Source of the DNA: Nitrospirota bacterium
Lineage (GTDB): Bacteria; Nitrospirota; Thermodesulfovibrionia; Thermodesulfovibrionales; Dissulfurispiraceae
Length of the DNA stretch: 59,006 nt
Reading direction: 5' to 3'
Assembly (NCBI GenBank): GCA_040758355.1
Contig: JBFLWF010000015.1
Coordinates: 1 to 59,006, forward strand
Shown here: positions 14,163 through 45,536 of the stretch, in pieces
How positions within the stretch are numbered: position 1 is the first letter of the stretch
How the letters are laid out: each line of letters begins with the position of its first letter
Program-made: the position numbers and the translations under genes
Notes under the pieces: generated by a model
What the model was told of the DNA's origin: nothing
The model's database searches: none
What the model saw: only the letters and a program-made list of their open reading frames with translations

Positions 14163-15803
14163 ATGGCGACGCTGAGCTTTAAAGGCAAGACCTTTGTTCA
14201 GAATCATCACCTGTCGGTGAAGTATCATCAGCTTATACCGAGGAAAGAGAAAAGCCTTACCGATAAGGTCAACCTCAATGACAATCTGATAATCCACGGA
14301 GACAATCTTATAGCTCTGAAAGCCCTCCTTCCCACTTATGCAGGAAAAGTGAAGTGTATCTACATAGACCCGCCTTACAATACAGGCAATGAGAAATGGG
14401 TCTATAACGACAATGTCAACTCGCCGATGATGCAGGAATGGCTTGGTAAGGTTGTAGACAAAGAAGACTTCACCCGCCACGATAAATGGCTCTGCATGAT
14501 GATGCCGAGATTGAAGTTGTTGAGGGAGTTGCTTGCTGATGATGGAGTGATATTTATAAGTATAGAAAATAACGAAGTCCATCATCTAATAATGCTTATG
14601 GACGAAATATTTCAAGGTAATTTTGTAGGCAACTTAATTTGGAGGAAAAAAGAGGGAGGCGGACAAACAGACCAATACTTCGTCACAGAACATGAGTATA
14701 TTCTTGTTTATGCCAAATCTCCTGCATTTCAGTGGCTTGATGAAACAATTCCAATAGATGAAGCTAAATTCAATAAGAAAGATGAAAACGGTAAATTTGA
14801 TGCAGTAAAACTTGCAAAGTGGGGAAGCGGCGCTCGCAGAGAAGACCGACCTTCAATGTATTTCCCTATCAAATCTCCTGATGGCAAAAACATATATCCA
14901 AAAGCGCCCGATGGAAGTGAAGGCAGATGGAGAGTCGGGAAAATAAGAATGGATAATCTGATTGACAATGACCTTATTTATTGGGAAAAGAAGAATGGCG
15001 AGTGGATTCCTTATGAAAAAATTTATTACCAAGAAGAAGCGGTTAAGAAAATTAAAGAGAGAAGCATTCTATACGAACTGGCTAATACAGGGGATGCTAC
15101 AAAAATGCTGACGAATATATTCGGCAAGAAAGATGTATTTGAAAATGCAAAGCCACTAGAATTAGTAAAATTCCTTATTAGCCATACCACTGATAAAAAT
15201 TCCATTATTCTCGACTCCTTTGCCGGCTCAGGCACAACCGCCCATGCAGTATTAGACCTAAACAATGAGGACGGCGGGAATCGCAAGTTTATTTTAGTTG
15301 AATGTGAGGATTATGCGGATAAGATTACTGCTGAGAGGGTCAGGCGGGTTATTAAAGGTGTTAAAACAGCAAAGGACGAGAAGCTCAAAAAAGGGCTTGG
15401 CGGGACTTTTAGTTACTTTGAACTCGGCGAGCCTATTGAGATGGAAAGCATCTTGGAGGGCAAGAAGCTGCCTGATTATATGGAGCTTGCACGATATATT
15501 TTTTACACAGCCACAGGAGAGGAATTTAATCCTTCCAAAGTAAAGCAGGACAAGAACTTCATCGGCGAAACAGAAGACCACGAGGTGTATCTCTTTTATG
15601 AGCCTGATATAGAAAAACTTAAGAAATTAGCTCTCACCCTTGATACTGCAAAGAAGCTTGGGACATTCAGAGGAAAGAAGCGGCTGGTCTTTGCCCCTGC
15701 CAAATATCTTGACCTCAATGATGCAGACCTGATCGAAAAGCACGGCCTGAAGGGGATTGAATACTGCCAACTGCCTTTTGAGATTTACAAGATGAGGGGG
15801 TGA
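14163..15803 (+). CDS. mod: Type III restriction-modification methyltransferase (Mod)
   Basis: 'LIIHGDNL', motif IV 'YIDPPYN', motif I 'LDSFAGSGTT' in beta order, 'GGNRKFILVE'. Confidence 0.92.
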   Translation: MATLSFKGKTFVQNHHLSVKYHQLIPRKEKSLTDKVNLNDNLIIHGDNLIALKALLPTYAGKVKCIYIDPPYNTGNEKWVYNDNVNSPMMQEWLGKVVDKEDFTRHDKWLCMMMPRLKLLRELLADDGVIFISIENNEVHHLIMLMDEIFQGNFVGNLIWRKKEGGGQTDQYFVTEHEYILVYAKSPAFQWLDETIPIDEAKFNKKDENGKFDAVKLAKWGSGARREDRPSMYFPIKSPDGKNIYPKAPDGSEGRWRVGKIRMDNLIDNDLIYWEKKNGEWIPYEKIYYQEEAVKKIKERSILYELANTGDATKMLTNIFGKKDVFENAKPLELVKFLISHTTDKNSIILDSFAGSGTTAHAVLDLNNEDGGNRKFILVECEDYADKITAERVRRVIKGVKTAKDEKLKKGLGGTFSYFELGEPIEMESILEGKKLPDYMELARYIFYTATGEEFNPSKVKQDKNFIGETEDHEVYLFYEPDIEKLKKLALTLDTAKKLGTFRGKKRLVFAPAKYLDLNDADLIEKHGLKGIEYCQLPFEIYKMRG

Positions 15804-15804
15804 G

Positions 15805-17271
15805 ATGCCTAAAGAAGATTTGATAAATAATATCCTCTCAATTCCTTCAGAGTCCCGCACACTTGAGTTTAAACGTTTGGGCAGCAGAAACGAGGGTGTT
15901 GACAGAACTCTTCAATCAATCGTTGCAATGGCTAATACTGATGGCGGAGTCATTATTTTTGGAGTTGACGATCCTCAGAAAACAACCAAAAAAGGATTTG
16001 ATAGGATTTTAGGCATAGAGGAGAATCTTGAGTTGTTTGATGAGATTGGACGCGCAGTTAAAAAAATCTCACCTCCGCTCTCAGGTATTTGGCCGCCTGA
16101 TTTATTTGAAATCACCGATAAAAATGTTCGCATAGGCTTACTCGGCATTCCCAAAGTTGGCGACGGGTTCCGGTCAATTGAAAATCATGTATATATCCGG
16201 CAGGAGAAAGGCAACAAAAGACTTTCTCCTCAGGAAATTGTTCATTTTGCCTATGTAAAGGGATTTGAAAGAGCAGATAAGGAACTGGTTAAAGTAGACT
16301 TTAACTTACTAAAGACTCATTACTATGAATCATGGCGGAGGAAGCGCGGCATCAGTGAAGATTCCATTGAAACTGTTTTGGAAAAAACCGGACTTGCAAG
16401 AAAAGATGCGCACGGCAGATTGCTGCCAACACGGGCAGCAGTTTTATTATTTGCTGAATTCCCTAACGACCTTCTTGATACAAAATGCACAATAAGAATT
16501 TTTCAATATGAAGGCAATTTAGAGACTATTCAAGAAACTTTAAATCTCATAGGAACTCCTAAAACCATAGATGGTCCGGTAATTAAACAAATTACCGAAG
16601 CTCATGAATATGTCTTGACATTATTACGCACAGGAATTAGAGTTCCATCGGGATTTGTAACGACATATCGAATACCGGAAAGAGCGATTAAGGAAGCTAT
16701 CACCAATGCAGTTATCCATCGTGATTATCACACTAAAAGAGATATAGAAATAAGAATTTTTGAAGATAGAATTGAAATTGAAAGCCCGGGCTTATTTCCA
16801 TACAATATTACTCCCTCAAACATTGGCTGTGAAAGAGCACACGGCTATCGAAATGATCTTTTAGTAAAGCATCTAAGAGAATTCCCTGACCCGCCTAATC
16901 TTGATCAGAACGAAGGGGTTAGGGCAATGCGTCAGGCAATGAATCAAGCCAATCTTTATCCGCCGATTTTTTTCACTTATCCACATTTGCAGGATGCTAT
17001 TCGTGTCGTGCTTTTTAATGAAAAAGCCCCCACTGAATGGGATAAAGTTTCTCATTATCTTAAAGCAAATAAATATATTGGTAATAAAGAGGCGCGGCAG
17101 ATTTTACATTTAGACGATTCAGTTAAAGTCTCAAAAATTTTTAATAGATGGGTCAAACAGGGAGTGTTAACTAAGATTGTCCCAAGAACTGGCGCTAAAC
17201 GAAGTGTTCGATACAGACTGCCTTCTGCCGATGAGAAGGGTTATTTATTTGCCACAGATAAAAGTAAATAA
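15805..17271 (+). CDS. AlbA_2 (Schlafen-like) + HATPase_c_4 + winged-HTH protein
   Basis: 'ESRTLEFKR', 'AMANTDGGVIIFGV', 'EAITNAVIHRDY', 'DRIEIESPG', C-terminal wHTH-like segment. Confidence 0.85.
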   Translation: MPKEDLINNILSIPSESRTLEFKRLGSRNEGVDRTLQSIVAMANTDGGVIIFGVDDPQKTTKKGFDRILGIEENLELFDEIGRAVKKISPPLSGIWPPDLFEITDKNVRIGLLGIPKVGDGFRSIENHVYIRQEKGNKRLSPQEIVHFAYVKGFERADKELVKVDFNLLKTHYYESWRRKRGISEDSIETVLEKTGLARKDAHGRLLPTRAAVLLFAEFPNDLLDTKCTIRIFQYEGNLETIQETLNLIGTPKTIDGPVIKQITEAHEYVLTLLRTGIRVPSGFVTTYRIPERAIKEAITNAVIHRDYHTKRDIEIRIFEDRIEIESPGLFPYNITPSNIGCERAHGYRNDLLVKHLREFPDPPNLDQNEGVRAMRQAMNQANLYPPIFFTYPHLQDAIRVVLFNEKAPTEWDKVSHYLKANKYIGNKEARQILHLDDSVKVSKIFNRWVKQGVLTKIVPRTGAKRSVRYRLPSADEKGYLFATDKSK

Positions 17272-17530
17272 AATTAAACTATATGATTTATAAGCCTTTT
17301 ATGAGAGTTTATTTTCCATGAATTAAGTTGCAAGCTCAAATGTGGCATTTGCATAGGGGTTTGCAAATGGAAGCGAAAAAACGTTATTTTTACAGTAAAT
17401 TCAAGGTGTTAAAGCAGCACTACATTTGTATATGCGGACACATTGCATAAATATGTTTATTTACCAGAGTTGAAAGTAAATAAAATAAAAATCCTTATTT
17501 CATAAGGACTTATTTGGAGTTTATTTTCCA
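17244..17530. repeat. Two degenerate 75-bp direct repeats (17244-17318, 17456-17530) containing palindromes
   Basis: Both read tttattt-N15-aaataaaat...ataag...gagtttattttcca; a related palindrome catttgca-N8-tgcaaatg lies at 17346-17369. Confidence 0.75.
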
Positions 17531-17541
17531 ACGGGGTAGCA

Positions 17542-20055
17542 ATGGAACTTAAGGAATATCAGAAAAAGACCTTAGATCTGGTCAAGAGCTATCTCGATTC
17601 TCTTGCCGAATACAGGGGCAAGTATGAAAAGCTTATAGCCGATGACCCAGACCTTGCCATAGACTTTCCTTTTAAGGCTTGGGAAAGGGTTATTGGAACA
17701 TCCTTTCATTCAAGCAAGAACGGACTCGGCGAACCCCTCCCTGACTTTTACCTGAAAATTCCCACTGGCGGCGGAAAGACCATCCTCGCCTGCCATGCCA
17801 TTGATCTGATTAACAGGACTTATTTAAAGAAGCAAACGGGGATTGTCCTCTGGATAGTGCCGACCACCCAAATATATAGGCAGACATTTTCCAATCTGAA
17901 AAACCGTGAACACCCTTATAGACAGGTATTGGACATTTCAAGCGGTGGAAGAACTCTGATTTTAGAGAAGCTGGATAAGTTTACACCTTTGGATGTAGAG
18001 GAAAATCTTGTGGTGATGCTTTTGATGCTCCCCTCTGCAAGCAGGCAGAACAAGGAGACATTGAAGGTATTCAAGGACAGCGGCGGTTTTACTCAATTTT
18101 TCCCTCCTGAAGACGCAATAGAGCAGCAAAAAGACCTCTTAGAGAAATTCCCGAATCTGGATTTTTTTGGAAGAGAAAGTGATTTCTTCGGCAGGATGGC
18201 AAGGACATCTCTTGGGAATACCCTGAGACTACTTAACCCCATAATCATTATTGACGAAGGCCATAAGGCTTATACTGAAACAGCCCGTGATACAATCAGA
18301 GGTTTCAACCCTTCAATAATTGTTGAGCTTTCCGCCACGCCGCCAAAGAGCACAAATCTTCTGGTAAACATCAGCGGACAGGCTCTTAACAGGGAGGAAA
18401 TGATTAAGCTTGATCTGAACATCATCAATAAATCAAGTCCTGATTGGAAAGACGTAATGCTTGCCTCAAAAGAGAAAAGAGATTTCTTGGAGCGCAAGGC
18501 AAAGGAGTACGAGGCGAACACCGGTGAATATATACGTCCTATCTGTCTGGTTCAGGCAGAAAGGACAGGCAAAGAGCAGAGGGGGACAAAATATATTCAT
18601 GCAGAGGATGTCAAAGAATATCTGATTAAGCAGTGTGGCGTATCGGAAAATGAGATAGCCATCAAAAGCAGTGAAAAAGATGACATAGAAGGCATGGACC
18701 TTTTAAGCCGTGATTGCGAGATCAGATATATCATTACCAAGCAGGCATTGCAGGAAGGATGGGACTGTGCCTTTGCATATATTCTTACAATATTGACAAA
18801 TCCCGGTTCCCAGTTAAGCATCACGCAGCTTGTAGGAAGAATTCTCAGGCAGTATAAAGCCCGCAAAACCAAAGTCAAAGACCTTGATGAGAGCTATGTC
18901 TTTTGCCATAGGCCGAAAGCAGGCGTACTTTTGGAGAGCATAAAGAAGGGTTTTGAGAATGAGGGGCTGGGCGATTTGGCTTCAAGGGTGACTGTTAAAG
19001 AGGGTGATACTGCCTTAGAGGATGCTACAAAGGAAAAGATTGTCAGATACAGAGACAAATTCAAAGTATTTGAGGGCAAAGTCTATCTGCCTAAATTTGT
19101 GATTCAGGAAAGAGGCGGCTGGCGGGACATTAACTATGACATGGACATTTTAAGCAGGATAAACTGGAATGATGCGGACTTAAAACCGGTAAAAGGCCTT
19201 CCACTCGGGGAGAAAAAATTAAGGGATGAAGAAATAACGGTTGGGCTGAGCGAGGATGTAAAAGAACTTCTTGAAAGAAAGAGCAGCATAGAAAGACATG
19301 GTGGGTTGAAGCTTGACCACGTTCTTATGACAAGGCAGTTGCTGGATATTATCCCAAATCCCTGGATTGCCCATGATATCGGGAAAGAGGTTCTGGCTGC
19401 CTTGCTGAAGAATAATAGTAAAGAGAAAGTTACAAATAATCTTGCTTTTATCATTGAAGAAACCCGCAAACAGTTGTTTGAAGAACGGGACAGGTTATCC
19501 GAGAAAATATTCAGAGATTTGATTGACAAGAAAAAGCTCTGGTTTTTTCTTCTATCGGATAAGGGAGGTTATGAACTTCCGCCGAGCATAGCCGTGAAAA
19601 AGAGCAGCAGAAAGCTTATCAGGGACGATCATTCTGAAGTTCAGAGGAGCCTTTTTGATTATGTCCCTGAAGAAGAATTCAATGAGATGGAAAAATCTAT
19701 CGCGATATATCTTGACGAACAGGAAAAGCTTTTATGGTGGTACAGGAATCTTTCAAGACAGGATTATTACATTCAGGGATGGCGAAAGTATAAAATATAT
19801 CCTGATTTTATTTTTACAAAAGCCGATGATACGGGCAAAGATTTTAGCATGGTTTATGTCGTAGAAACAAAAGGCATTCACCTGAAAGGCAGCGAAGACA
19901 CTAAGTATAAGAAAAATGTTTTTAAATTTTGTAATGAATTGGGGAAGAAGATAGAATGGAAAGAACTGAATAAAGAATTTTCAAAAAGGTTAGAGTTTCA
20001 GGTTATTGATGAAAAGGAATGGCAGAGGCGAATAAATGAGATTTTCGGGGTTTAA
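17542..20055 (+). CDS. res: Type III restriction endonuclease subunit (Res), SF2 helicase + PD-(D/E)xK nuclease
   Basis: 'PTGGGKT', 'IIDEGH', 'LSATP', 'ALQEGWD', 'QLVGRILR', C-terminal 'YPDFI...VVETKG'. Confidence 0.92.
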   Translation: MELKEYQKKTLDLVKSYLDSLAEYRGKYEKLIADDPDLAIDFPFKAWERVIGTSFHSSKNGLGEPLPDFYLKIPTGGGKTILACHAIDLINRTYLKKQTGIVLWIVPTTQIYRQTFSNLKNREHPYRQVLDISSGGRTLILEKLDKFTPLDVEENLVVMLLMLPSASRQNKETLKVFKDSGGFTQFFPPEDAIEQQKDLLEKFPNLDFFGRESDFFGRMARTSLGNTLRLLNPIIIIDEGHKAYTETARDTIRGFNPSIIVELSATPPKSTNLLVNISGQALNREEMIKLDLNIINKSSPDWKDVMLASKEKRDFLERKAKEYEANTGEYIRPICLVQAERTGKEQRGTKYIHAEDVKEYLIKQCGVSENEIAIKSSEKDDIEGMDLLSRDCEIRYIITKQALQEGWDCAFAYILTILTNPGSQLSITQLVGRILRQYKARKTKVKDLDESYVFCHRPKAGVLLESIKKGFENEGLGDLASRVTVKEGDTALEDATKEKIVRYRDKFKVFEGKVYLPKFVIQERGGWRDINYDMDILSRINWNDADLKPVKGLPLGEKKLRDEEITVGLSEDVKELLERKSSIERHGGLKLDHVLMTRQLLDIIPNPWIAHDIGKEVLAALLKNNSKEKVTNNLAFIIEETRKQLFEERDRLSEKIFRDLIDKKKLWFFLLSDKGGYELPPSIAVKKSSRKLIRDDHSEVQRSLFDYVPEEEFNEMEKSIAIYLDEQEKLLWWYRNLSRQDYYIQGWRKYKIYPDFIFTKADDTGKDFSMVYVVETKGIHLKGSEDTKYKKNVFKFCNELGKKIEWKELNKEFSKRLEFQVIDEKEWQRRINEIFGV

Positions 20056-35088: not shown

Positions 35089-35191
35089 GATTTATTCAGC
35101 AAGATTCGCTCAAGCCAACCCTGCTTGCGAATCTTGCTAATTGCCCTTTAATTATATTTTTGTTGTACAATTAAGCAGGGGGAGACAAAAG

Positions 35192-36325
35192 GTGACAAAC
35201 CTTTATTCAATTTTTTTCCTTAACCTTGCACTGGGCCTGATATTGGGCTTTGTATTCCACAGGTCTGACCTTTGCATGGCCGGAATATTCCGCGACATAT
35301 TTCTCCTGAAGCGCACCTTCCTGCTAAGGATACTTTATTTGCAGGTGATTGTTACAATGGCGCTTTTCTTTATCGCAAAGAAAGCAGATCTTATCAGCCT
35401 TTATCCTCCTCCCAACCTGAATATCGCATCGCTTGGAACACTGGCCGGAGGCATGATATTCGGAATAGGGATGGTGCTGGCAGGGGGTTGTGTAATAGGA
35501 ATCCTTTATAAAATGGGCTCCGGAAGCATTATCAGCATTATTGCATTTGCAGGACTCATCATCGGAAGCGCTGTCTTCGCAGAGTTCTATCCATTCTGGG
35601 CAGAGTTTTCAAAAAGAACCATGGTCTCTGAAGCTGTATTGCTGCCGCAGCTTATCGATGAACACCTCCTTACGCTTCCCATCCTGATTATATCATCAGT
35701 GCTTATTTTCAGATGGATACGCTCCAAAAAATTGCACCAAAAGGCTTATGCAGAGGGGTACATCCATCCGTGGAAGGTTGTAATTATCATTGCACTTTTA
35801 AATTTGATCATTTATATAAGCTCTGATATGCCAATGGCTGTCAGTACAGGATATGCAAAGATCGCTGCATACATTGAAAAGATCCTTATCCCGGAGCACT
35901 TTGAAACCGTTGCATTCTTTAAAAGAGAATCATACTCGGTTTTACATCCGGCGAGTAAGGCTTTAATTGCAGGCGGCCCTGGCGCCAGGTTTGACCACAT
36001 TTTTTCCACTGAGATTTCATTAATCATCGGGGTCATATTCGGGTCTTTTATATCCGCAATCTCGCTGGGAGAGTTCAAGCTGACTCTAAGTACGCTCCCC
36101 CCTTTGAGACAGAATATATCCGCCTTATTTGGTGGCATACTACTTGCAATAGGTTCGAGGATGGCAGGAGGATGTAATGTAAAGCTTCTAATGAGCGGTC
36201 TTCCCCTGCTTTCCATCCAGGCATTCCTGTTCCTTTTCGGGATGTTGCCCGGCGCCTGGCTTGGAACTTATTTATTCAAAAAACTTGTTATCAGCTATGA
36301 CAGGGAGGGTGGCGATGGAAAATAG
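35192..36325 (+). CDS. YeeE/YedE thiosulfate/sulfur transporter (canonical half order)
   Basis: Multi-TM; three conserved Cys motifs 'RSDLCMAG', 'LAGGCV', 'MAGGCN'; GTG start after GGGGAG. Confidence 0.88.
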   Translation: MTNLYSIFFLNLALGLILGFVFHRSDLCMAGIFRDIFLLKRTFLLRILYLQVIVTMALFFIAKKADLISLYPPPNLNIASLGTLAGGMIFGIGMVLAGGCVIGILYKMGSGSIISIIAFAGLIIGSAVFAEFYPFWAEFSKRTMVSEAVLLPQLIDEHLLTLPILIISSVLIFRWIRSKKLHQKAYAEGYIHPWKVVIIIALLNLIIYISSDMPMAVSTGYAKIAAYIEKILIPEHFETVAFFKRESYSVLHPASKALIAGGPGARFDHIFSTEISLIIGVIFGSFISAISLGEFKLTLSTLPPLRQNISALFGGILLAIGSRMAGGCNVKLLMSGLPLLSIQAFLFLFGMLPGAWLGTYLFKKLVISYDREGGDGK

Positions 36326-36593
36326 AACAGCGATTGATCTCGATGTAATCAACCTGGATATTCGGGGACAGATATGTCCTGCATGCCTTCTTATTTCCTT
36401 AAAGGAGATAAATAAACACAAAGGACTCCTGAGAAACGGCGAGGCAAACCTGATAGTAAAGACAGACCACAGGGATGCCACAAGGACGATTCCCGATGCA
36501 GCCACTGCAATGGGATATGCAGTTTTTGTGGAAAAGAAAAAGGGATACTATGAGATTACGGTGGGGCGAAAAGATGAAGACCAGAAGGCATGA
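36315..36593 (+). CDS. TusA/YeeD-family sulfur carrier
   Basis: 'LDIRGQICPAC', 'TDHRDA..TIP'; overlaps yeeE stop. Confidence 0.85.
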   Translation: MENRTAIDLDVINLDIRGQICPACLLISLKEINKHKGLLRNGEANLIVKTDHRDATRTIPDAATAMGYAVFVEKKKGYYEITVGRKDEDQKA

Positions 36594-37875
36594 CAACCAC
36601 ACGCATATTTCAGCAGGAAGTGAAGATATGGAGAGGAAGAACAGGATACTTCTTCAATACATCAAGGAGAAGGTAAACCAGCTCCTGCAGATTATGGGGA
36701 CAAAACCCCTGAGGGATGAGGAACTCAATGACGAGAGCCTTATTGCCATAGACCCGATAGGCATCATCGCAGAATCATTCGAACAGGTGCTCGAACATCT
36801 GAGGGAGAGCAACAGACAGTTGCAGCTTGCGAGGGATTACCTGCAGGCAGTCTTTGACACTGCAGGCGTTGGCATATCTATCATTGATCGGGATTTGAAA
36901 ATTATTAAATGCAATGAAAAACAAAAGGAGCTCCTGGTGAACGGCGTATCGCAGATAGAAGGCAGGCACTGCTATGAGGTTTATTGCGGGATAGACTCGC
37001 CTCCTCTGATATGCCCTGCCATAGAGACATTGGAGAGAGAGCGAGCGGTTTTATTAAAAGAGGTAACCAAAAAGGGAAAGGTATTTCAAATCATCACATC
37101 TCCCCTTAAAGGCAAAGGTGGCGACATTATTGGCGTTATAGAGGTATCCATGGATATCACGGAAAAGAAAAGGGCATTGGAGGCTATGTGCCAATCGGAA
37201 AAGCTTGCTGCAGTGGGACAGCTTGCCGCAGGCATTGCCCATGAATTGAACAATCCACTGGGCAATATCCTCGGTTATGCAAAGCTTCTTCTCATGGAAC
37301 AAGACACTACGGAATTTCAGAGGAATAGGCTGGAGGTTATTATAGAGCAGGCAAAGAGGGGAAGCGGCATCATAAAGGGTCTTCTCGAATTTTCACACCA
37401 AAAGATGCCTGTCTTCTGGAAGATTTCCCTTAATACATGCATACAGCGGGCACTCCAGTCCCTGAGCGATGAAATTAAGGACAATAATATAGAGGTTTTA
37501 ACAAAATTGGGTGCGGTTCCTTATGTAATGGCCGATCCAAAGCAGATGGAACAGGTAATCTACAACATACTCCTCAATGCCATACAGGCTATGGAAGGAA
37601 GGGGCGGTATTGTGGAGATAAAGAGCGAGGCATTAAACGGCTCTGTGGAAGTAGCCATAAAGGATAATGGCCCGGGCATACCAAGGGAGCATTTGAGCAG
37701 GATTTTCGAGCCCTTCTTCACCACAAAACCTGTAGGGAAGGGTACCGGGCTTGGCCTCAGTATATGCGCAGAGATATTGAAAAAGCATAGCAGCAATATC
37801 TGTGTTGAGAGCGAAGCGGGCAAAGGGACTAAATTCTCCTTCAGGATAATGGATGGAGTAACGGGCAATGTTTGA
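36574..37875 (+). CDS. Soluble PAS histidine kinase with an uncharacterised N-terminal domain
   Basis: No TM; Cys-containing PAS 'CYEVYCG..SPP..CP'; 'AGIAHELNNPL', 'GKGTGLGL'. Confidence 0.88.
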   Translation: MKTRRHDNHTHISAGSEDMERKNRILLQYIKEKVNQLLQIMGTKPLRDEELNDESLIAIDPIGIIAESFEQVLEHLRESNRQLQLARDYLQAVFDTAGVGISIIDRDLKIIKCNEKQKELLVNGVSQIEGRHCYEVYCGIDSPPLICPAIETLERERAVLLKEVTKKGKVFQIITSPLKGKGGDIIGVIEVSMDITEKKRALEAMCQSEKLAAVGQLAAGIAHELNNPLGNILGYAKLLLMEQDTTEFQRNRLEVIIEQAKRGSGIIKGLLEFSHQKMPVFWKISLNTCIQRALQSLSDEIKDNNIEVLTKLGAVPYVMADPKQMEQVIYNILLNAIQAMEGRGGIVEIKSEALNGSVEVAIKDNGPGIPREHLSRIFEPFFTTKPVGKGTGLGLSICAEILKKHSSNICVESEAGKGTKFSFRIMDGVTGNV

Positions 37876-39205
37876 TATTCTGGCAATAGAAGACGACCGG
37901 AGGATGAGGGAGCTCCTAATGGAGATACTGAGCCGGGATGGATGCTCTGTATTTACTGCAAAGAACGGTGAAGAAGGAATCGGTCTTCTTGAGAGGAGGA
38001 TTTTTGATCTTGTTATTACAGACCTCAAGATGCCCGATATAGACGGCATTACCATCCTCTCAAGGGCAAGGGAGCTTAATCCCGAGAGCCTGGTCATAGT
38101 AATCACCGCATACGGGACTGTGGAGTCAGCCATTGAGGCCATGAAACTCGGCGCCTACGACTACATCCAGAAGCCCTTTGAGCCCGAGGAGCTGATGCTG
38201 GTTATAAAGAAGGCACTGGACTATAAAAGGCTTGCCGATGAAAACTTAAGGTTATCAAGTCAGCTCGAATCCTGCAGGTCAGAGGAGTTGATAGGGACAA
38301 GCCCGCGGATGACAGAGGTAAAGAGGCTTGTGGATAGGATTGCGCCCCTCGACACCACTGTGGTCATAGAAGGAGAAACAGGGACAGGGAAAAACCTTGT
38401 AGCAAAGACCATCCACAGGATAAGCAAAAGGTCATCCGGAAAATTTCTGAGCATAAACTGCGGGGCACTCACAGAGACACTGCTTGAATCAGAGCTATTC
38501 GGACACGAAAAAGGGGCATTTACCGGCGCCATAAAACAGAAGCAGGGCCTTTTTGAGGCTGCCCATGGAGGGACATTGTTCCTCGACGAGATAAACAATG
38601 CAAGCCTCAACATGCAGATAAAGCTCCTCAAGGTATTGGAGGAAGGAAGGATTATGAGGATTGGCTCCACAGAATCCGTGCCTGTGGATGTCCGCATTAT
38701 TGCTGCAAGCAATATCCCGCTTAAAAAGGAGGTGGATGAAGGCAAGTTCAGGCAGGATCTGTACTACCGCCTTAAGGTAGTTACTGTTACCATGCCTTCC
38801 CTCAGGGAAAGGCGTGATGATATACCGCTCCTGGCGCATCACTTCCTCGACAGGTATCGAGAGAGATTCGGCAAAGAGATTCAGGGATTTACAACAGAGG
38901 CCATGGATACGCTCCTGACATATGACTGGCCGGGCAATGTCAGGGAGCTTGAACACGTTATAGAGAGGGCGGTCATCTTAGAATATGGTAAAAAGATCGG
39001 TATATCTTCCCTTCCTGCAGAACTCCGTTCAAGACCGAGGGAGATTATGTCGTCGAAAAGTGTAATGAGGCTTGAAGACATGGAAAGACAGTTAATCCAA
39101 TCCACATTGAGGTTCTTTGACGGCAAAAGGGATTCTGCTGCCCGTGCATTGGGCATCAGCACTGCCACCCTCTGGAGAAAGCTCAAGAAATATAATCTCT
39201 CCTAA
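37868..39205 (+). CDS. Sigma54-dependent response regulator
   Basis: REC 'TDLKMP', 'GETGTGK', 'GAFTGA', 'WPGNVREL', HTH 'AARALGISTATLWRKL'. Confidence 0.93.
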   Translation: MFDILAIEDDRRMRELLMEILSRDGCSVFTAKNGEEGIGLLERRIFDLVITDLKMPDIDGITILSRARELNPESLVIVITAYGTVESAIEAMKLGAYDYIQKPFEPEELMLVIKKALDYKRLADENLRLSSQLESCRSEELIGTSPRMTEVKRLVDRIAPLDTTVVIEGETGTGKNLVAKTIHRISKRSSGKFLSINCGALTETLLESELFGHEKGAFTGAIKQKQGLFEAAHGGTLFLDEINNASLNMQIKLLKVLEEGRIMRIGSTESVPVDVRIIAASNIPLKKEVDEGKFRQDLYYRLKVVTVTMPSLRERRDDIPLLAHHFLDRYRERFGKEIQGFTTEAMDTLLTYDWPGNVRELEHVIERAVILEYGKKIGISSLPAELRSRPREIMSSKSVMRLEDMERQLIQSTLRFFDGKRDSAARALGISTATLWRKLKKYNLS

Positions 39206-39439: not shown

Positions 39440-39455
39440 TGGCATGTCTATTGCT
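39440..39455 (+). promoter_or_regulatory. Sigma54 (-24/-12) promoter
   Basis: TGGCAT-gtcta-TTGCT, GG-N10-GC spacing, about 40 bp upstream of the rhodanese ATG. Confidence 0.85.
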
Positions 39456-39494: not shown

Positions 39495-40490
39495 ATGAGG
39501 GCAAAGGGTTTATTAATAATGGTGATGATGGTGGTTGCAGCTATATCCACTAATGCCTATGGATGGGCAAATCCGGATATCTTAATGAATCCCGATGATG
39601 TGGAGAAGGTTGCTGCAAAACCTGACTGGGTAATCCTTGACTGCCGGGGCAAAGAGGCATACGAGAAAGGGCATATCCCCGGAGCTATAGTCCTTGATTG
39701 CAGGAAAGACCTGAGGGATGGGACAGAAAGGGCATTAAAGCCTGCACAGTTGGAAAAGATACTCGGAAATGCAGGCATTGGTAACGACAAGAATGTTGTT
39801 GTATATGGAGATGCAAAGGATATAGTCCATGCAAGTGTAGGATTCTGGATACTTGAGTACATGGGGCATGATAAGGTCCATTTCCTCGACGGCGGTCTTA
39901 CTGAATGGAAAGCGGCTGGAAAACCTGTAACAACAGAGCCGAAGACATTGCCGCCGGCAACATTCAAGGCTAAGGTTGTTCCATCAAGGTATTCCTCAAC
40001 AGATGAGATTGTTAAGATTGCAAAGGGAGAGACAAAAGGTATTCAGGTTATAGATGCAAGGACGGAAAAGGAATACAATGGTAAAGAGTCCCGCTCCTTA
40101 AGGGGAGGCCGTGTTCCCAATACAACCATAAATGTATCCCACGAGCTTACATACGACAAGCGCACAGGAAAGCTGCTTCCCGAGAAGTTTTTAGAAAAAT
40201 CTTACGGCAGTCTTGATAAGAATAAAAGGACGGTAGGATTGTGCCAGACAGGCTCACGCTCCACGCTTACATATCTGCAGTTGAGGCTTATGGGCTTCAA
40301 AGACCCTGCAAATTATGATGATTCATGGATTGTGTACGGCAGCAGCATTTATCCACCCTATCCGGTGGAGAACGAGCAATGGATAAATCTGGAGGGCATT
40401 GTGAAAATGGCGGCTGACATAAAGAAGCTTAAGAAAGAGATCGCGGACCTGAGGAAAGAGTTAAATCTGCCGCCGAAAGAAGAGAAGTAA
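39495..40490 (+). CDS. Exported tandem-domain rhodanese (sulfurtransferase)
   Basis: Signal peptide ending AYG; 'YEKGHIPGA', 'LDGG..EWK', active loop 'LCQTGSRS', 'NYDDSW'; C-terminal coiled coil. Confidence 0.92.
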   Translation: MRAKGLLIMVMMVVAAISTNAYGWANPDILMNPDDVEKVAAKPDWVILDCRGKEAYEKGHIPGAIVLDCRKDLRDGTERALKPAQLEKILGNAGIGNDKNVVVYGDAKDIVHASVGFWILEYMGHDKVHFLDGGLTEWKAAGKPVTTEPKTLPPATFKAKVVPSRYSSTDEIVKIAKGETKGIQVIDARTEKEYNGKESRSLRGGRVPNTTINVSHELTYDKRTGKLLPEKFLEKSYGSLDKNKRTVGLCQTGSRSTLTYLQLRLMGFKDPANYDDSWIVYGSSIYPPYPVENEQWINLEGIVKMAADIKKLKKEIADLRKELNLPPKEEK

Positions 40491-40509: not shown

Positions 40510-41040
40510 ATGGGTGAAAGGATAAAAATAGTTCCGCTTGGCGAAGTTGATGGGGGTCTTATTATGGAGGTTGCAACTCAGGTCAGTATGACATTAGGAA
40601 TAACCGCAATAGTTGACGAGATGCAGCACTATCATGAATCCGCCTATAACCGCCAGAGGAACCAATATTCTGCCGAAGCCTTCCTGAGATTTATGGAAGG
40701 GGTTCGAGGGGAAACCCCGTTTCCTCTCGAACACAGGCTGCTCGGCATCACCGATGTTGACCTCTATATTCCTGATTTGAATTACGTATTCGGACTTGCA
40801 GATGGGTCCAGTGCTGTTGCCATTGTCTCTGTTTCGAGATTTAAAAAAGGGAATGGGAAGGTTGTTGAGAGGGCTGTTAAAACCGCAGTCCATGAGCTCG
40901 GGCACACATACGGGCTTGACCACTGCCATGACAACAAATGCGTCATGTATTTCTCCTACAATCTTTCGGATACGGATTATAAGGGGAAAGAATTCTGCAT
41001 CAAATGCCGGAAGATATTGAATAAAAGGAATATCACATGA
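40510..41040 (+). CDS. Archaemetzincin-family Zn metalloprotease
   Basis: 'HELGHTYGLDHC...CVM.FS......D.K...FC..C', 'NYVFGLA'. Confidence 0.9.
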   Translation: MGERIKIVPLGEVDGGLIMEVATQVSMTLGITAIVDEMQHYHESAYNRQRNQYSAEAFLRFMEGVRGETPFPLEHRLLGITDVDLYIPDLNYVFGLADGSSAVAIVSVSRFKKGNGKVVERAVKTAVHELGHTYGLDHCHDNKCVMYFSYNLSDTDYKGKEFCIKCRKILNKRNIT

Positions 41041-41339
41041 AACTGGGTATCTTAGTAAACACAGACAAAAATCTCAATCATATATTGGGCATTACAAAGG
41101 CTGCGATAGAGAAAGGGCATGAGGTCATCATATTCAATATGGACGAAGGGGTCAGGCTCTTTAACGAGCATGCCTTCAGGGCATTATGCAGCACGAGAGG
41201 CGTATCCATGAGCTTCTGCGACCACAGCACCCATGTCATGAATGTATCAAAGGAAGGCATCCCTGAAGAAATAATCTGCGGCAGCCAGTACAACAATGCT
41301 GTCATGAACAACGATGCAGACAGGGTTATTGTTTTGTAA
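41037..41339 (+). CDS. DsrE-like sulfur relay protein
   Basis: 'GHEVIIFNMDEGV', conserved Cys in 'SFCDHS', 'GSQY', 'ADRVIVL'. Confidence 0.8.
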   Translation: MKLGILVNTDKNLNHILGITKAAIEKGHEVIIFNMDEGVRLFNEHAFRALCSTRGVSMSFCDHSTHVMNVSKEGIPEEIICGSQYNNAVMNNDADRVIVL

Positions 41340-41348
41340 GGAGATATT

Positions 41349-41630
41349 GTGGATAAGAAGAAAATAGCAGTAATTATTAGAGACAGACAGGCAGAGGCAT
41401 TCAGGATGAGCGTTGGCCTCACTGTCCTTGATGACACAATAGACGTATTCATAACTCAACCTGTTAAGGATGACAAGGAGACCCTTACCCAACTTGAAGG
41501 GGCAAAGGAAATGAAGGAACTGGGCATCATAAATATTCTTACAACTGTTGAAGGAACAGACTTTGAGTTTATAACCATAAATGATATGGCAGAAAAACTG
41601 CTCCAATACGACAACATCCTGCCGTATTGA
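41349..41630 (+). CDS. DsrF-like small protein (Cys-free)
   Basis: 'KIAVIIRDRQAEAFRMSVGL', '.D.ILPY' C-terminus; follows DsrE-like gene; GTG start after GGAG. Confidence 0.6.
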   Translation: MDKKKIAVIIRDRQAEAFRMSVGLTVLDDTIDVFITQPVKDDKETLTQLEGAKEMKELGIINILTTVEGTDFEFITINDMAEKLLQYDNILPY

Positions 41631-41654: not shown

Positions 41655-41825
41655 ATGAGGGTCTTATATCTGATTAAATCCGGACATGATGAAACCATAA
41701 ATAAGATAATAGATGTGCATAAAGCAGAAAACGATGTTAAGGTCATTGACCTCACAGAGGGCAATATTTCTTATGGGAGTCTCGTAGAAGACATGTTTAG
41801 TTATGACAAAGTTATATCATGGTGA
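41655..41825 (+). CDS. DsrH/TusB-like 56-aa protein (absent from ORF track)
   Basis: Hand translation MRVLYLIKSGHDE...ISYGSLVEDMFSYDKVISW*; the 'Y..LV.......VISW' ending resembles DsrH; GGAG RBS. Confidence 0.7.
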   Translation: MRVLYLIKSGHDETINKIIDVHKAENDVKVIDLTEGNISYGSLVEDMFSYDKVISW

Positions 41826-41837
41826 AGGAGGGTAAGA

Positions 41838-42002
41838 ATGGGTGAGGTAAGAGGCGGATTGACATTACCGTGGCTGTGGGTAGCAGTTATTATTGCCCTT
41901 TTGTCTCTGGGCTTTATACTGCCGCCCCTTGATAAGCCGCTAAGGGATCTTGCCAAGCAGGCAGAGCAGATGAAGGCGGCACAGGAACCTGTTTCTCAAT
42001 AA
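41838..42002 (+). CDS. 54-aa single-TM membrane protein (absent from ORF track)
   Basis: MGEVRGGLTLPWLWVAVIIALLSLGFILPPLDKPLRDLAKQAEQMKAAQEPVSQ*; strong AAGGAGG RBS. Confidence 0.65.
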   Translation: MGEVRGGLTLPWLWVAVIIALLSLGFILPPLDKPLRDLAKQAEQMKAAQEPVSQ

Positions 42003-42040: not shown

Positions 42041-42517
42041 ATGAAAACGAAAAAGACAATAGTATTGGCGGTTATGCTGTCACTGGCATTTTTGACAATG
42101 CCTTTGATAAGCGGGCTTAAAAAGGCACAGACTACTGTTTCACTGGTATCTGTGGCATATGCTGATGAGGCAAAGGATTTTAAATGGATCCCGAGAAGAC
42201 CAGGGATTACGAGGGCACAGATAGCCCTCGGAAGGGCTGTTACAATACCCTTTGAATTTACAGTTACAGGAAATGTGAAAAAGGTGAGGTTTGAATTGCC
42301 AAAGAAATTTGTAGACCTCGGCATTGATATTCTGGAAGACGAAGTGGCTGTTAAGGGCGGTAAGGCTTCGTCATCCGTTGCGTTCACCGTGCCACCTGGA
42401 AAACCATTGGGCAAGTTCGACATGGCAGTTACTGCAAAGGATGCAGCAACAGGAAAAGAGATAGGCAAAGGCACAATACAGTTTATGCTGCTACCGCCGG
42501 GTGTGGGTGGATGTTAG
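42041..42517 (+). CDS. Exported beta-sandwich-like protein with a C-terminal GGC (putative sulfur carrier)
   Basis: N-terminal hydrophobic leader with an AYA site; beta-strand pattern; sole Cys is the last residue (PPGVGGC*). Confidence 0.7.
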   Translation: MKTKKTIVLAVMLSLAFLTMPLISGLKKAQTTVSLVSVAYADEAKDFKWIPRRPGITRAQIALGRAVTIPFEFTVTGNVKKVRFELPKKFVDLGIDILEDEVAVKGGKASSSVAFTVPPGKPLGKFDMAVTAKDAATGKEIGKGTIQFMLLPPGVGGC

Positions 42518-42546: not shown

Positions 42547-43953
42547 ATGAGCGACTTTGATTTTGGCATAAAAGGCTGGTGGGACTCATGGTACAAAAAA
42601 TTCTTCAGGGAAAAATGGCCCCTATGGATAGCAGCCATATTCATGGCGCTTTCAGGGATAATAGCATACGGAATAGCCGTATGGTCATTGTCGAGGACAG
42701 TTACGGGTGAGAATCCCTATGATCAGGCAAAACCGCTCGGAACATTCCTGGGACTTAAAGAACTCGGAGGCATTATCAACAGCTTCCTCGGCAAGATAGG
42801 TCTGCCTCACTATCCTTTCAATGGCTATATATGGCCTGACGGGCAGACCATAAACTATTTTGTCCAGTATCCCAATCCTTTCCTTGAGCCGACAGCAGGG
42901 ACGATGCTCGGCATACTCTTCGGAGGGCTGATCGCCGCGCTTTTGGCAAAGGAGTTCGCACTCAAGGTGCCTCTTGACAAGACGGAGTACGGACTTGCGC
43001 TTTCCGGCGGAGTGATGATGGGTATAGGCGCGGTCTTTATGTTCGGTTGTCCCCTGGTAAGTACGACTAATATAGGCGCCATGGGTGTTCAGGCTATTCT
43101 TATGGTTATAGGCATGACCATAGGCTCATTCTTTGGAGCAAAGATAATTATCTGGCTTGAGAAGCGAAGGCTGGCATCCCTCGCGTGCGCTGCCGATGGT
43201 GCAGGCTATAGACCATTAATGCATTTTGAAAAGACAAAGACCATATGGCCTAAAATGCCGGCTAATGCGGACGGAGGCGAGCCATTCGGCATAAGGTTCC
43301 AGCCTGTAATGGCAATAATCCTTACGGTCGTTATGTTCATGGTTTTGGCACGGTTCACCAAGATCGGCTACCCTGCCCTCTCCATGTCATTTCTGGCAGC
43401 AACACTAACGGGCTTTGCAATGCAGAGGGGAGGCATGTGCTTTGCCTATGCATACAGGGAACCCTTTTTAACAGGCTTCAGCGATATGTCGAGGGCAATG
43501 GCGCTTCTCTACGCACTGCTGGTGATAGGTTTTCTCCCATTCAAACTCCTTGGCTCCGTGTCCCCTGATATCGCCTATGCCGAGATATTCGCCATAAGCC
43601 CTGCAGGTATCGGAATACTCATTGGTTCAGCCCTGTTCGGGCTCGGCATGGCGCTCAACGGAGCGTGCGTTAGCGACAGTCTCTGGAGAACTGCCGAGGG
43701 GCAGGTAAAAATATGGGTAGGGCTCTTAACACTCATATGCGTTTCCTCATGGCTCTTCCCGATGAGGGAGGAGGCATGGTTTAAGACCATCTTTGCGCCG
43801 TACGGCTCAAAGAATATAACGGATGTGTATCTGCCCCAGATATTCGGGAGTTATCCCATAGCGGTCGTATTTACCATAAGTGTGATACTTCTATGGGCGC
43901 TCGTTATGACATGGTTTGCAGGCAGGACATTCAAAAAATATATGGAAGGATAG
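42547..43953 (+). CDS. YeeE/YedE-family transporter with swapped half order
   Basis: 'GGVMMGIGAVFMFGCP' precedes 'QRGGMCF' and 'GMALNGACV'. Confidence 0.85.
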   Translation: MSDFDFGIKGWWDSWYKKFFREKWPLWIAAIFMALSGIIAYGIAVWSLSRTVTGENPYDQAKPLGTFLGLKELGGIINSFLGKIGLPHYPFNGYIWPDGQTINYFVQYPNPFLEPTAGTMLGILFGGLIAALLAKEFALKVPLDKTEYGLALSGGVMMGIGAVFMFGCPLVSTTNIGAMGVQAILMVIGMTIGSFFGAKIIIWLEKRRLASLACAADGAGYRPLMHFEKTKTIWPKMPANADGGEPFGIRFQPVMAIILTVVMFMVLARFTKIGYPALSMSFLAATLTGFAMQRGGMCFAYAYREPFLTGFSDMSRAMALLYALLVIGFLPFKLLGSVSPDIAYAEIFAISPAGIGILIGSALFGLGMALNGACVSDSLWRTAEGQVKIWVGLLTLICVSSWLFPMREEAWFKTIFAPYGSKNITDVYLPQIFGSYPIAVVFTISVILLWALVMTWFAGRTFKKYMEG

Positions 43954-43963
43954 GAGGGTTGAA

Positions 43964-44200
43964 ATGACAACAGAAGTCAAAATCGATAAAGTCCTCGACG
44001 TTAAAGGCTTGGTATGCCCGAGGCCTATGGTAATGACCATGAACACATTAAAAACCATGGAAAAGGGGCAGGTTCTTCATGTGCTGGCAAATGACAGCAG
44101 CACAAAGCACAGCATCCCTGCCCTCTGCGAGAGGAGCGGCTATAAGCTTGTGGAGATGAAAGATGAGGCTGGTACTATCAGCTTCATCATTCAAAAATAA
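43964..44200 (+). CDS. tusA: Sulfur carrier TusA
   Basis: 'LDVKGLVCPRP', 'GQVLHVLAND', 'IPALC'. Confidence 0.9.
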   Translation: MTTEVKIDKVLDVKGLVCPRPMVMTMNTLKTMEKGQVLHVLANDSSTKHSIPALCERSGYKLVEMKDEAGTISFIIQK

Positions 44201-44226: not shown

Positions 44227-44685
44227 ATGTATAAGAACATTTTGTTGCCGACAGATGGCTCTGAACTCTCGGAGAAGGCAGTAAAAAGCGGTGTCGCCCT
44301 TGCTAAACTCCTTAATGCAAAGGTGACAGGGCTTTATGTGATACCAAAACCTTCTTCAGGCGATATCTGGGATGTGTGGGCGCCTGAAAATACAGAAGAA
44401 GGAAGGATGTTCAGGACTAAATTCGAGGCATCATTTGAGTGTGTGGCAGCGAGGTATCTCGATGCGATCGAGAATGCAGCGAAAGAGGCAGGAGTGCCCT
44501 GTGAATGCCTTTATGTAAAAGGCGAGTCTCCTTCGGAGGAAATAATAAAAACAGCAGAAAACAAGGGCTGCGACCTCATCTTTATGGCATCCCACGGCAA
44601 GAGAGGTATAGGTTCTATCCTCGGAAGCGTGACAACAAAGGTTTTGGCGAGTTCAAAGGTCTCCGTGCTGGTACATAGATTATAA
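44227..44685 (+). CDS. Universal stress protein
   Basis: 'ILLPTDGSELS', 'DLIFMASHGKRG', 'LGSVT.KVL'. Confidence 0.92.
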   Translation: MYKNILLPTDGSELSEKAVKSGVALAKLLNAKVTGLYVIPKPSSGDIWDVWAPENTEEGRMFRTKFEASFECVAARYLDAIENAAKEAGVPCECLYVKGESPSEEIIKTAENKGCDLIFMASHGKRGIGSILGSVTTKVLASSKVSVLVHRL

Positions 44686-44725: not shown

Positions 44726-44755
44726 GGGCGAACCTTAGTGTTCGCCCTCCTTTTT
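44726..44755 (+). terminator. Probable intrinsic terminator ending the sulfur operon
   Basis: gggcgaac-cttagt-gttcgccc followed by tccttttt; a second hairpin at 44692-44721. Confidence 0.55.
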
Positions 44756-45536
44756 AACCTTCCATTAACTCATCGATCTTTTTTCCGATGTCCTCTGCTT
44801 CCATCAGTGAAGTGCCGATGAGCATCGCATCTATTCCTGCATCTTGCAGCTTGACCACATCATTTCTATTCTTGATTCCGCTTTCGCTTACCACTATTTT
44901 GTCTTTTGGGATATTCTTTTTTAATCTGAAGGTTGTTGATAAATCGATCTTTAATGTTTTCAGGTTGCGATTGTTAATTCCGATTGTATCTGCATCTATC
45001 AATAGCGCCTTCTCCAGATCATCCTCATCGTGAACCTCGAACAATACATAAAGCCCCAACTCTTTTGCGAGGTGGAGGTATTCCTCTGCCTGATTTTTAT
45101 CGAGAATTGCTGCGATCAAGAGCATGGCATCGGCGTGATTCACACTTGATTCATATATCTGGTATTCATCGAAGATAAAATCTTTTCTTAAAACTGGCTT
45201 TGATATTATATCTTTGACTGCCTTGATATACGAGATATGCCCCTGGAAAAAATCTTCTTCAGTTAAAACAGATATGGCATTTGCATCTTTTTTATCATAT
45301 ATGGATGCTATTTTGATCAGGTCAAAATCTTTTCTTATAATGCCCTTTGATGGCGATGCCTTTTTTATCTCTGCTATGAGTTTTATCTTTTCGCCATTTC
45401 TTTTTATGGCACTTCCGAAGTCCCTTGTTTTATCTACATCCCGCAGGCGATTTTTTAGGTCATTAATGGGAATGGCGATTTTTGAATGCCTTAGCCGTTC
45501 AGCTTTCTTTTTGACGATTTCATTTAAAATGTTCAT
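44754..45536 (-). CDS. trpC: Indole-3-glycerol phosphate synthase
   Basis: 'IAEIKKASPSKG', 'SVLTE', 'LRKDFI', 'GINNRNL', 'SESGI'. Confidence 0.97.
   Translation of the reverse strand: MNILNEIVKKKAERLRHSKIAIPINDLKNRLRDVDKTRDFGSAIKRNGEKIKLIAEIKKASPSKGIIRKDFDLIKIASIYDKKDANAISVLTEEDFFQGHISYIKAVKDIISKPVLRKDFIFDEYQIYESSVNHADAMLLIAAILDKNQAEEYLHLAKELGLYVLFEVHDEDDLEKALLIDADTIGINNRNLKTLKIDLSTTFRLKKNIPKDKIVVSESGIKNRNDVVKLQDAGIDAMLIGTSLMEAEDIGKKIDELMEG

Follow-up and report, generated by a model that had tools for sequence, protein, structure and literature searches.

The route by which sulfur travels from outside the cell to the YeeE/TusA/DsrEFH-II relay is unknown or only proposed in the portions of the literature consulted (PMC13293266, PMC11582611). 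According to the sections of those studies available to us, the three small proteins of the YTD cluster are DsrEFH type II (PMC13293266, PMC13047784), transfer of sulfur from TusA through DsrEFH-II to DsrC has been shown in vitro, and import of polysulfide through YeeE has been proposed (both PMC13293266). A locus in a Nitrospirota bacterium (assembly GCA_040758355.1, contig JBFLWF010000015.1) raises the question of whether a small exported protein with a single, terminal cysteine takes part in this step. The window, by which we mean the whole 59,006-nucleotide stretch of DNA analysed, encodes this protein at 42041..42517. In this report, we found that it belongs to a real, conserved, Cys-tailed family that is unnamed in Pfam and NCBIfam. 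Its gene is consistently flanked by those for a secreted sulfurtransferase and a sulfur channel, and the protein likely moves sulfur across the periplasm into the cell.

The Cys-tailed protein and its operon

The features of the locus, with the basis of each assignment, are as follows.

35141..36593, + strand: additional YeeE gene (TsuA half order) with an additional TusA-like gene, ahead of the two-component pair (profile matches)
36475..39205, + strand: PAS histidine kinase and sigma-54 response regulator, likely the operon activator (profile matches)
39440..39455, + strand: sigma-54-like -24/-12 site before the operon (such a site precedes the first gene in 20 of 24 loci, the window included)
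39495..40490, + strand: secreted two-domain rhodanese with active-site loop CQTGSR (Cys250) (profile matches, sequence)
40510..41040, + strand: archaemetzincin-family Zn protease, no leader (profile matches; kept in the operon)
41037..41339, + strand: DsrE-like protein (DsrEFH type II / YTD) (PF02635 above cut-off)
41349..41630, + strand: DsrF-like protein, YTD CHP1 (size and position are the sole basis)
41655..41825, + strand: DsrH-like protein (YTD CHP2), 56 aa (by-eye match to the published CHP2 alignment)
41838..42002, + strand: 54-aa single-helix membrane peptide, likely a tether or YedE-associated subunit (profile, fusions)
42041..42517, + strand: Cys-tailed Ig-like protein, 158 aa, GC-tailed clade of the unnamed family (translation, homologs, alignment, AlphaFold)
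42041..42163, + strand: its leader (residues 1-41), predicted to be of Sec type and probably cleaved behind AYA (hydropathy, AxA and RRxF counts)
42176..42493, + strand: its predicted Ig-like beta-sandwich, residues 46-151 (AlphaFold, fold searches)
42494..42514, + strand: its C-terminal tail PPGVGGC with terminal Cys158 (translation, 53-row alignment)
42547..43953, + strand: YeeE/YedE-family membrane protein, YedE/FdhT half order (profile matches)
43964..44200, + strand: TusA-family sulfur acceptor (CPRP) (profile matches)
44227..44685, + strand: universal stress protein, encoded at the end of the operon ahead of the terminator-like site (profile match)
44726..44757, + strand: intrinsic-terminator-like hairpin with T run (sequence)

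The gene for the Cys-tailed protein follows immediately on a purine-rich stretch resembling a ribosome-binding site and closes with a TAG stop. The first-pass annotation had held that the C-terminal residue is the only cysteine among the 158, and translation confirms it (codon 42512-42514). It had also posited an export leader. A hydrophobic stretch is present in all 53 aligned homologs (mean hydropathy of at least 2 over a 12-residue window), an AxA motif stands shortly upstream of the conserved F47-x-W49 in 49 of them, A39 is nearly invariant, and RRxF occurs in none, as scored with our own hydropathy and motif script, not SignalP. The hydrophobic N-terminus, the AxA motif and the lack of a twin-Arg signal thus predict Sec export with cleavage near residue 41. 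The alternating beta-strand pattern first read from the sequence reappears in the AlphaFold model (mean pLDDT 80) as predicted strands across residues 46-151 (blocks of 89-97 for residues 51-150). In the tail that had been called flexible, residues 152-158 are coil in the model, but their pLDDT is 82, and flexibility is a prediction only.

Fold searches with this model returned generic Ig-like domains, the best being WxLIP (Z 10.2) and a sialidase linker (Z 9.4); matches in the ESM Atlas (NEW3/NPCBM-associated, FixG_C) were all below 0.9 and serve as leads only. The protein is unannotated, as had been supposed: Pfam and NCBIfam profile searches gave no match to it, and a PDB sequence search gave one chance match only (E 0.45). 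Among 39 family members, Pfam detected only weak beta-sandwich matches (MalQ_N in 7). A search of the source genome found no paralog.

The operon genes lie on the same strand as the gene for the Cys-tailed protein, with that of the rhodanese first and that of the universal stress protein last, and the YeeE gene is indeed directly downstream, as first noted, across a gap of 30 bp. Cys168, Cys298 and Cys374 of this YedE-type channel are invariant in 22 rows. The combination by which YTD clusters are recognized (yeeE/yedE, tusA, a dsrE-like gene and genes for two small conserved proteins) is present, and the locus is, judged from sequence, an extended YTD (DsrEFH type II) operon. It has the same cytoplasmic relay genes as the YTD cluster in the consulted parts of its description (PMC12998232). 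Beyond that cluster, it adds the secreted rhodanese, the Cys-tailed protein, the 54-aa peptide, the archaemetzincin and the sigma-54 two-component system. In the descriptions of Desulfobacterota YTD clusters that we consulted, no such Cys-tailed gene is mentioned, and the protein is therefore not essential to the relay. We rejected an identity with YTD CHP3, the published rows of which (PMC12998232, supplement 3, compared by eye) are leaderless, have internal cysteines and show no GGC end.

Of 23 loci, 21 retain the leaderless archaemetzincin as part of the operon. Two of the four loci in which no -24/-12-like site was found lack the region before the first gene; the site was scored against the sigma-54 -24/-12 consensus. 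The two YeeE proteins of the window (35141-36325 and 42547-43953) have opposite half orders, TsuA-like in the first and YedE-like in the second. The upstream YeeE-TusA pair, which sits beside the sensor kinase, is possibly a sensing or signalling module, by analogy with SoxT1B as treated in the sections consulted of PMC11582611. Elsewhere in the window, open reading frames at 14163-20055 resemble, by eye, a type III restriction-modification island (methyltransferase-, ATPase-domain- and restriction-subunit-like). The source genome has dsrA, and a DsrD match below cut-off lies beside dsrAB.

Conservation of the tail and its neighbours

In a word-indexed search, 71 of 73 close homologs end in VGGC, and the two that do not stop mid-domain in a frameshift-like manner. 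All 73 are unnamed or "hypothetical" and, where labelled, are assigned to Nitrospirota/Thermodesulfovibrionales. Because a word-indexed search may favour proteins that share the tail, an index-free search matters here. The tail Cys is kept in 32 of its 35 matches (8 with GC or HC, 14 with (E/D)C(M/L)C and 10 with CSC), and the three exceptions are a frameshift-like sequence, a Cys-less paralog and a chance match to a repeat protein. P152, G154, V155, G156, G157 and C158 are invariant in 53 aligned rows, and in the 39-row alignment of the family, four positions past the initiator Met are nearly invariant, the tail Cys being one of them. Invariance of the terminal Cys had been set as a check on the original proposal, and it holds in the GC-tailed clade; distant members retain the Cys but not the GG (ends AAGC, AVGC and ITHC). 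Further, of 69 sequences that end in GGC, 60 lack any other Cys in the mature domain, as would suit a carrier with a single thiol.

None of 2461 crudely called open reading frames of the genome has a sole terminal Cys, and only the true SoxY ends in GGC(GG); these figures are background only, as the crude caller replaced the gene in question by an antisense frame. TGA follows the GGC in only four loci (L008-L010 and L016), with unrelated sequence beyond it, and the stops are otherwise mostly TAA or TAG. We therefore rejected a selenoprotein made by read-through of TGA after the terminal Cys.

The neighbours are conserved as well. Among 23 loci from related genomes, a set that includes the near-duplicates L013 and L015, YeeE/YedE is present in all 23 and a secreted rhodanese in 22; the gene after that of the Cys-tailed protein encodes YeeE in 20 and a rhodanese in 3. 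It had been asked whether homologs leave sulfur loci. The GC-tailed clade stays in rhodanese/YeeE/TusA loci even as the type of partner changes, and the triad is kept whether the rhodanese is the two-domain CQTGSR form, an ExtH lipoprotein or a single-domain secreted protein. In L030, L039 and L050, a distant GC-type member has a single-domain secreted rhodanese on one side and a TsuA-order YeeE on the other, and two of these three members directly follow DsrEFH-II genes.

We found the family in 34 of 317 genomes of the order, 25 with GC-type and 9 with only CSC-type members (tail types were read from the loci that were fetched and, for the rest, judged by the span and score of the match). The YedE subtype is present in 25 of the 317, of which 24 are GC-type, and the 54-aa peptide in 24, of which 23 are GC-type, so that the three go together with very few exceptions; neither was found in any of the nine CSC-only genomes. 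These counts, and those from 29 chosen genomes that encode the protein, cover related genomes, which are not independent. In the one genome that has the YedE subtype and no match to the Cys-tailed protein (G244), the contig ends 124 bp past the peptide gene. Of the 29 chosen genomes, 28 have dsrA, a gene common in the class, and 14 have ExtH; SoxY is present in 12, and none was found in 17.

The 54-aa peptide comprises one hydrophobic helix followed by PPLDKPL. One protein record (P0039) joins it to an Ig-GGC domain by way of a long, charged linker and without another leader, and in two others (P0111/P0086) a diverged copy is fused likewise. The latter pair is labelled Euryarchaeota by NCBI and is ~30% identical to the window protein. 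Among the gathered proteins, the peptide profile matches P0039 with E 9e-30 and P0111 with E 9e-7; all of these fusions are known from protein records. We also looked for fused forms of greater length (329-2000 aa) and detected none, a weak indication only. In two genomes (G254 and G021), the Cys-tailed gene lies beside that for ExtH, with neither the YedE subtype nor the peptide in the locus. The two loci of this kind are L019 and L038, and across the whole of genome G254 the searches for the YedE subtype and for the peptide were likewise negative. From its absence where the YedE subtype is absent, and from its fusions, we infer that the peptide belongs with the YedE channel and holds the Cys-tailed protein near it.

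Comparison with SoxY and other carriers

The first-pass annotation had called the protein SoxY-analogous. The analogy in the GGC arm stands; the likeness stops there in sequence and profile, in the Sec leader and in the position of the Cys as the very last residue. Neither PF13501 nor TIGR04488 matches the protein at E<=0.1 or any of the 39 family members, whereas the SoxY encoded in the same genome scores 153 bits against the SoxY model. HHalign of the family against 11 SoxY sequences gave probabilities of 0.1-0.4%, and BLAST against the genome's own SoxY gave E 2.1. The SoxY arm motif is given as VTIGGC(GG) in the consulted part of PMC11237559; the tail LPPGVGGC* has the GGC in common with it and lacks both the VTI and the trailing GG. 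The leader is of Sec type, in contrast to the twin-Arg leaders of the 11 SoxY proteins examined, and the locus has no SoxZ or SoxXAB. As had been noted, no soxZ was seen in the window; the single SoxZ match in the genome lies on contig C11, next to the true soxY and within soxXYZAB. A complete soxXYZAB on another contig means that the Cys-tailed protein does not replace SoxY, and on these grounds we rejected it as a SoxY homolog or replacement. The two would be alike in being small periplasmic beta-sandwiches with GGC on a C-terminal arm. SoxY was not among the 50 fold matches listed, and the PDB holds SoxY chains; this is not evidence of a different fold. The model is an Ig-like sandwich that matches many generic Ig domains.

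Two observations on sox genes may be recorded. In the source genome, which bears dsrA, an operon for a DMSO-reductase type II enzyme is inserted between soxA and soxB of the soxXYZAB cluster (L027; G000:C11:44000-62000). In one relative, three divergent SoxY-like matches (L069-L071; G262:C23) lie on the same contig as the operon described here.

Other carriers offer looser parallels. DsrC has a C-terminal arm ending in a Cys that bears sulfur, as is proposed here, but differs in being cytoplasmic, helical and furnished with two Cys. We rejected a ubiquitin-like carrier (ThiS/MoaD/CysO), on account of the export leader and the Ig-like model as against a cytoplasmic beta-grasp, and its variant trimmed by the archaemetzincin, as the protease is leaderless and the GG not invariant. 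The source genome encodes a second small GC-tailed exported protein: 102 aa long, ending in AAGC and without an NCBIfam name, it follows a CxxCH-rich multiheme cytochrome (L072:3162-5114; G000:C27). The extHIJKL cluster of Geobacter (ExtH rhodanese, ExtI porin, MccSep) is also related, insofar as ExtH and ExtI adjoin the Cys-tailed protein in many relatives; however, no Ext model matches the protein itself, and a profile search of the source genome found neither ExtH nor ExtI. In the sulfur and ext literature that we text-searched, mostly the open-access parts of it (the papers cited above with PMC13510729, PMC5877670 and PMC8906906), this protein is nowhere described.

ExtH itself shows two features of interest. 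In L012, L013, L014 and L018-L023, it ends in a Gly-rich linker and IGC or VGC, a second possible swinging Cys arm; this GC tail might make a separate carrier redundant. In L016:11971-13420 (+) and L038:1934-3316 (-), an in-frame TGA of the gene falls precisely on the catalytic residue (VY*RTG, against VHCRTG in other loci), and thus ExtH is likely a selenoprotein in these two loci.

Proposed sulfur carriage and its rivals

On balance, and with a modest leaning rather than assurance, we favour a role for the protein as a persulfide carrier that is loaded by the rhodanese and delivers to YedE, from which sulfur would pass to TusA, DsrEFH-II and DsrC; the loading and delivery steps put forward in the first-pass annotation are thereby partly supported. 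In favour are the invariant terminal Cys, the conserved neighbours, the co-occurrence with the YedE subtype and the 54-aa peptide, the fusions and the frequency of dsrA. Against are the CSC, ECxC and Cys-less forms treated below, the GC tail of ExtH, the Desulfobacterota YTD clusters, the two loci beside ExtH with neither YedE subtype nor peptide, and the tail pLDDT of 82. In such a scheme, Cys250 of the rhodanese would take sulfur from polysulfide or thiosulfate and persulfidate Cys158. The carrier would then dock at YedE, kept nearby by the 54-aa peptide or its fused copy, and pass the sulfur into the channel's Cys relay (C168, C298, C374), whence TusA and DsrEFH-II might bring it to DsrC/DsrAB. 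Import of sulfur is the likelier direction than export. The mechanism would parallel the hand-over from SoxY to SoxT that has been proposed for Hyphomicrobium in the consulted portion of PMC11582611.

An alternative that we consider unlikely, yet worth weighing, is that the protein is a thiol-redox helper, the terminal thiol of which forms transient mixed disulfides and strips sulfur from, or re-reduces, the rhodanese and the channel Cys; the CxC paralog is possibly the reductant of that thiol. The sister clades lend this some weight. CxC tails occur in 24 of 35 representatives, and Ext-type operons have an ECxC paralog and the GC gene as a tandem, with the paralog first; some such operons also encode a Cys-less paralog (AGGD). 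The CSC gene lies outside sulfur loci and, in 9 of the 10 genomes that we examined, comes right after a Fur/PerR-like gene (four of the Fur/PerR-like calls were scanned and fell below curated cut-offs, and the rest were recognized by eye), with genes for AhpC, rubrerythrin, catalase or catalase-peroxidase nearby and no YeeE. Such a role has also been proposed for SoxS/DsbA beside SoxT, in the part of PMC11582611 consulted. Against these points, the window protein has one Cys and its genome no paralog, a combination that speaks for carrying rather than for disulfide exchange; the fold is predicted to be that of an Ig-like sandwich and not of thioredoxin; and GC members group apart from the CxC clades. 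This separation comes from a tail-free tree of 39 rows (five of them trimmed earlier than intended, with the tails still removed), in which GC, ECxC and CSC members form distinct clades and the CSC sister clade has support 96/93.

The CSC-tailed members read as an unannotated exported oxidative-stress protein; those behind Fur/PerR-like genes with peroxide defence are in L031, L032, L033, L036, L037, L040, L043 and L044. In L032 and L033, the AhpC frame stops after YPADFTFV and then resumes, which suggests a selenocysteine peroxiredoxin. Taken together, the contexts of the CSC, ECxC and Cys-less forms indicate that the scaffold offers a C-terminal thiol for more than one purpose, and it also serves a non-sulfur context, probably a redox one.

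It is improbable, in our estimation, that the terminal thiol instead binds selenide, selenite-derived selenium or a soft metal for a YedE/YedF-like uptake system. Selenium-linked YedE/FdhT and YedF models are among the top NCBIfam matches for the channel and for TusA, albeit below cut-off; relatives carry ExtH and ExtI, named for selenite/tellurite reduction (PMC5877670, in the part consulted); and the in-frame TGA of ExtH falls at the active site in two loci. However, DsrEFH-II, for which sulfur transfer has been shown, is in the same operon, MccSep of the ext cluster has been shown to reduce polysulfide (PMC13510729, likewise consulted in part), and the mostly TAA or TAG stops mean that the Cys-tailed protein is itself no selenoprotein. 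We hold it to be very improbable that the protein is a structural adaptor of the YedE channel or the rhodanese, with its Cys tying it by a permanent disulfide to a partner or to another copy of itself. Close homologs do have the surface stretch RPGITRAQIALGR in common, the Ig domains matched in the fold searches are generic ones of the spacer and adhesion kind, and a Cys-less paralog exists, but distant GC-type members lose the stretch and keep the Gly-Cys end, and the partners differ between loci while the tail is constant.

Possible implications for sulfur import

Cys-arm sulfur carriers are already known; what is new here is an unnamed family in a new position. The operon names a small, soluble, one-Cys candidate together with a putative donor enzyme, channel, tether and acceptor, and the import step is thus testable in vitro with recombinant proteins. 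A broader proposal, which we advance tentatively and with more doubt than conviction, is that a convergent, SoxY-independent periplasmic shuttle, tethered to a YedE channel by the 54-aa peptide as a dedicated membrane subunit, is the missing first step of S0/polysulfide uptake in Dsr-type Nitrospirota, and that tail swaps (GC, ECxC, CSC) have re-tuned one Ig scaffold. If this were true, the uptake would feed sulfur disproportionation or oxidation, and the tail swaps would have yielded a sulfur carrier, a redox partner and a PerR-controlled peroxide-stress protein. The family was found in roughly a tenth of the order's genomes and may mark sulfur import in uncultured Thermodesulfovibrionia-type bacteria.
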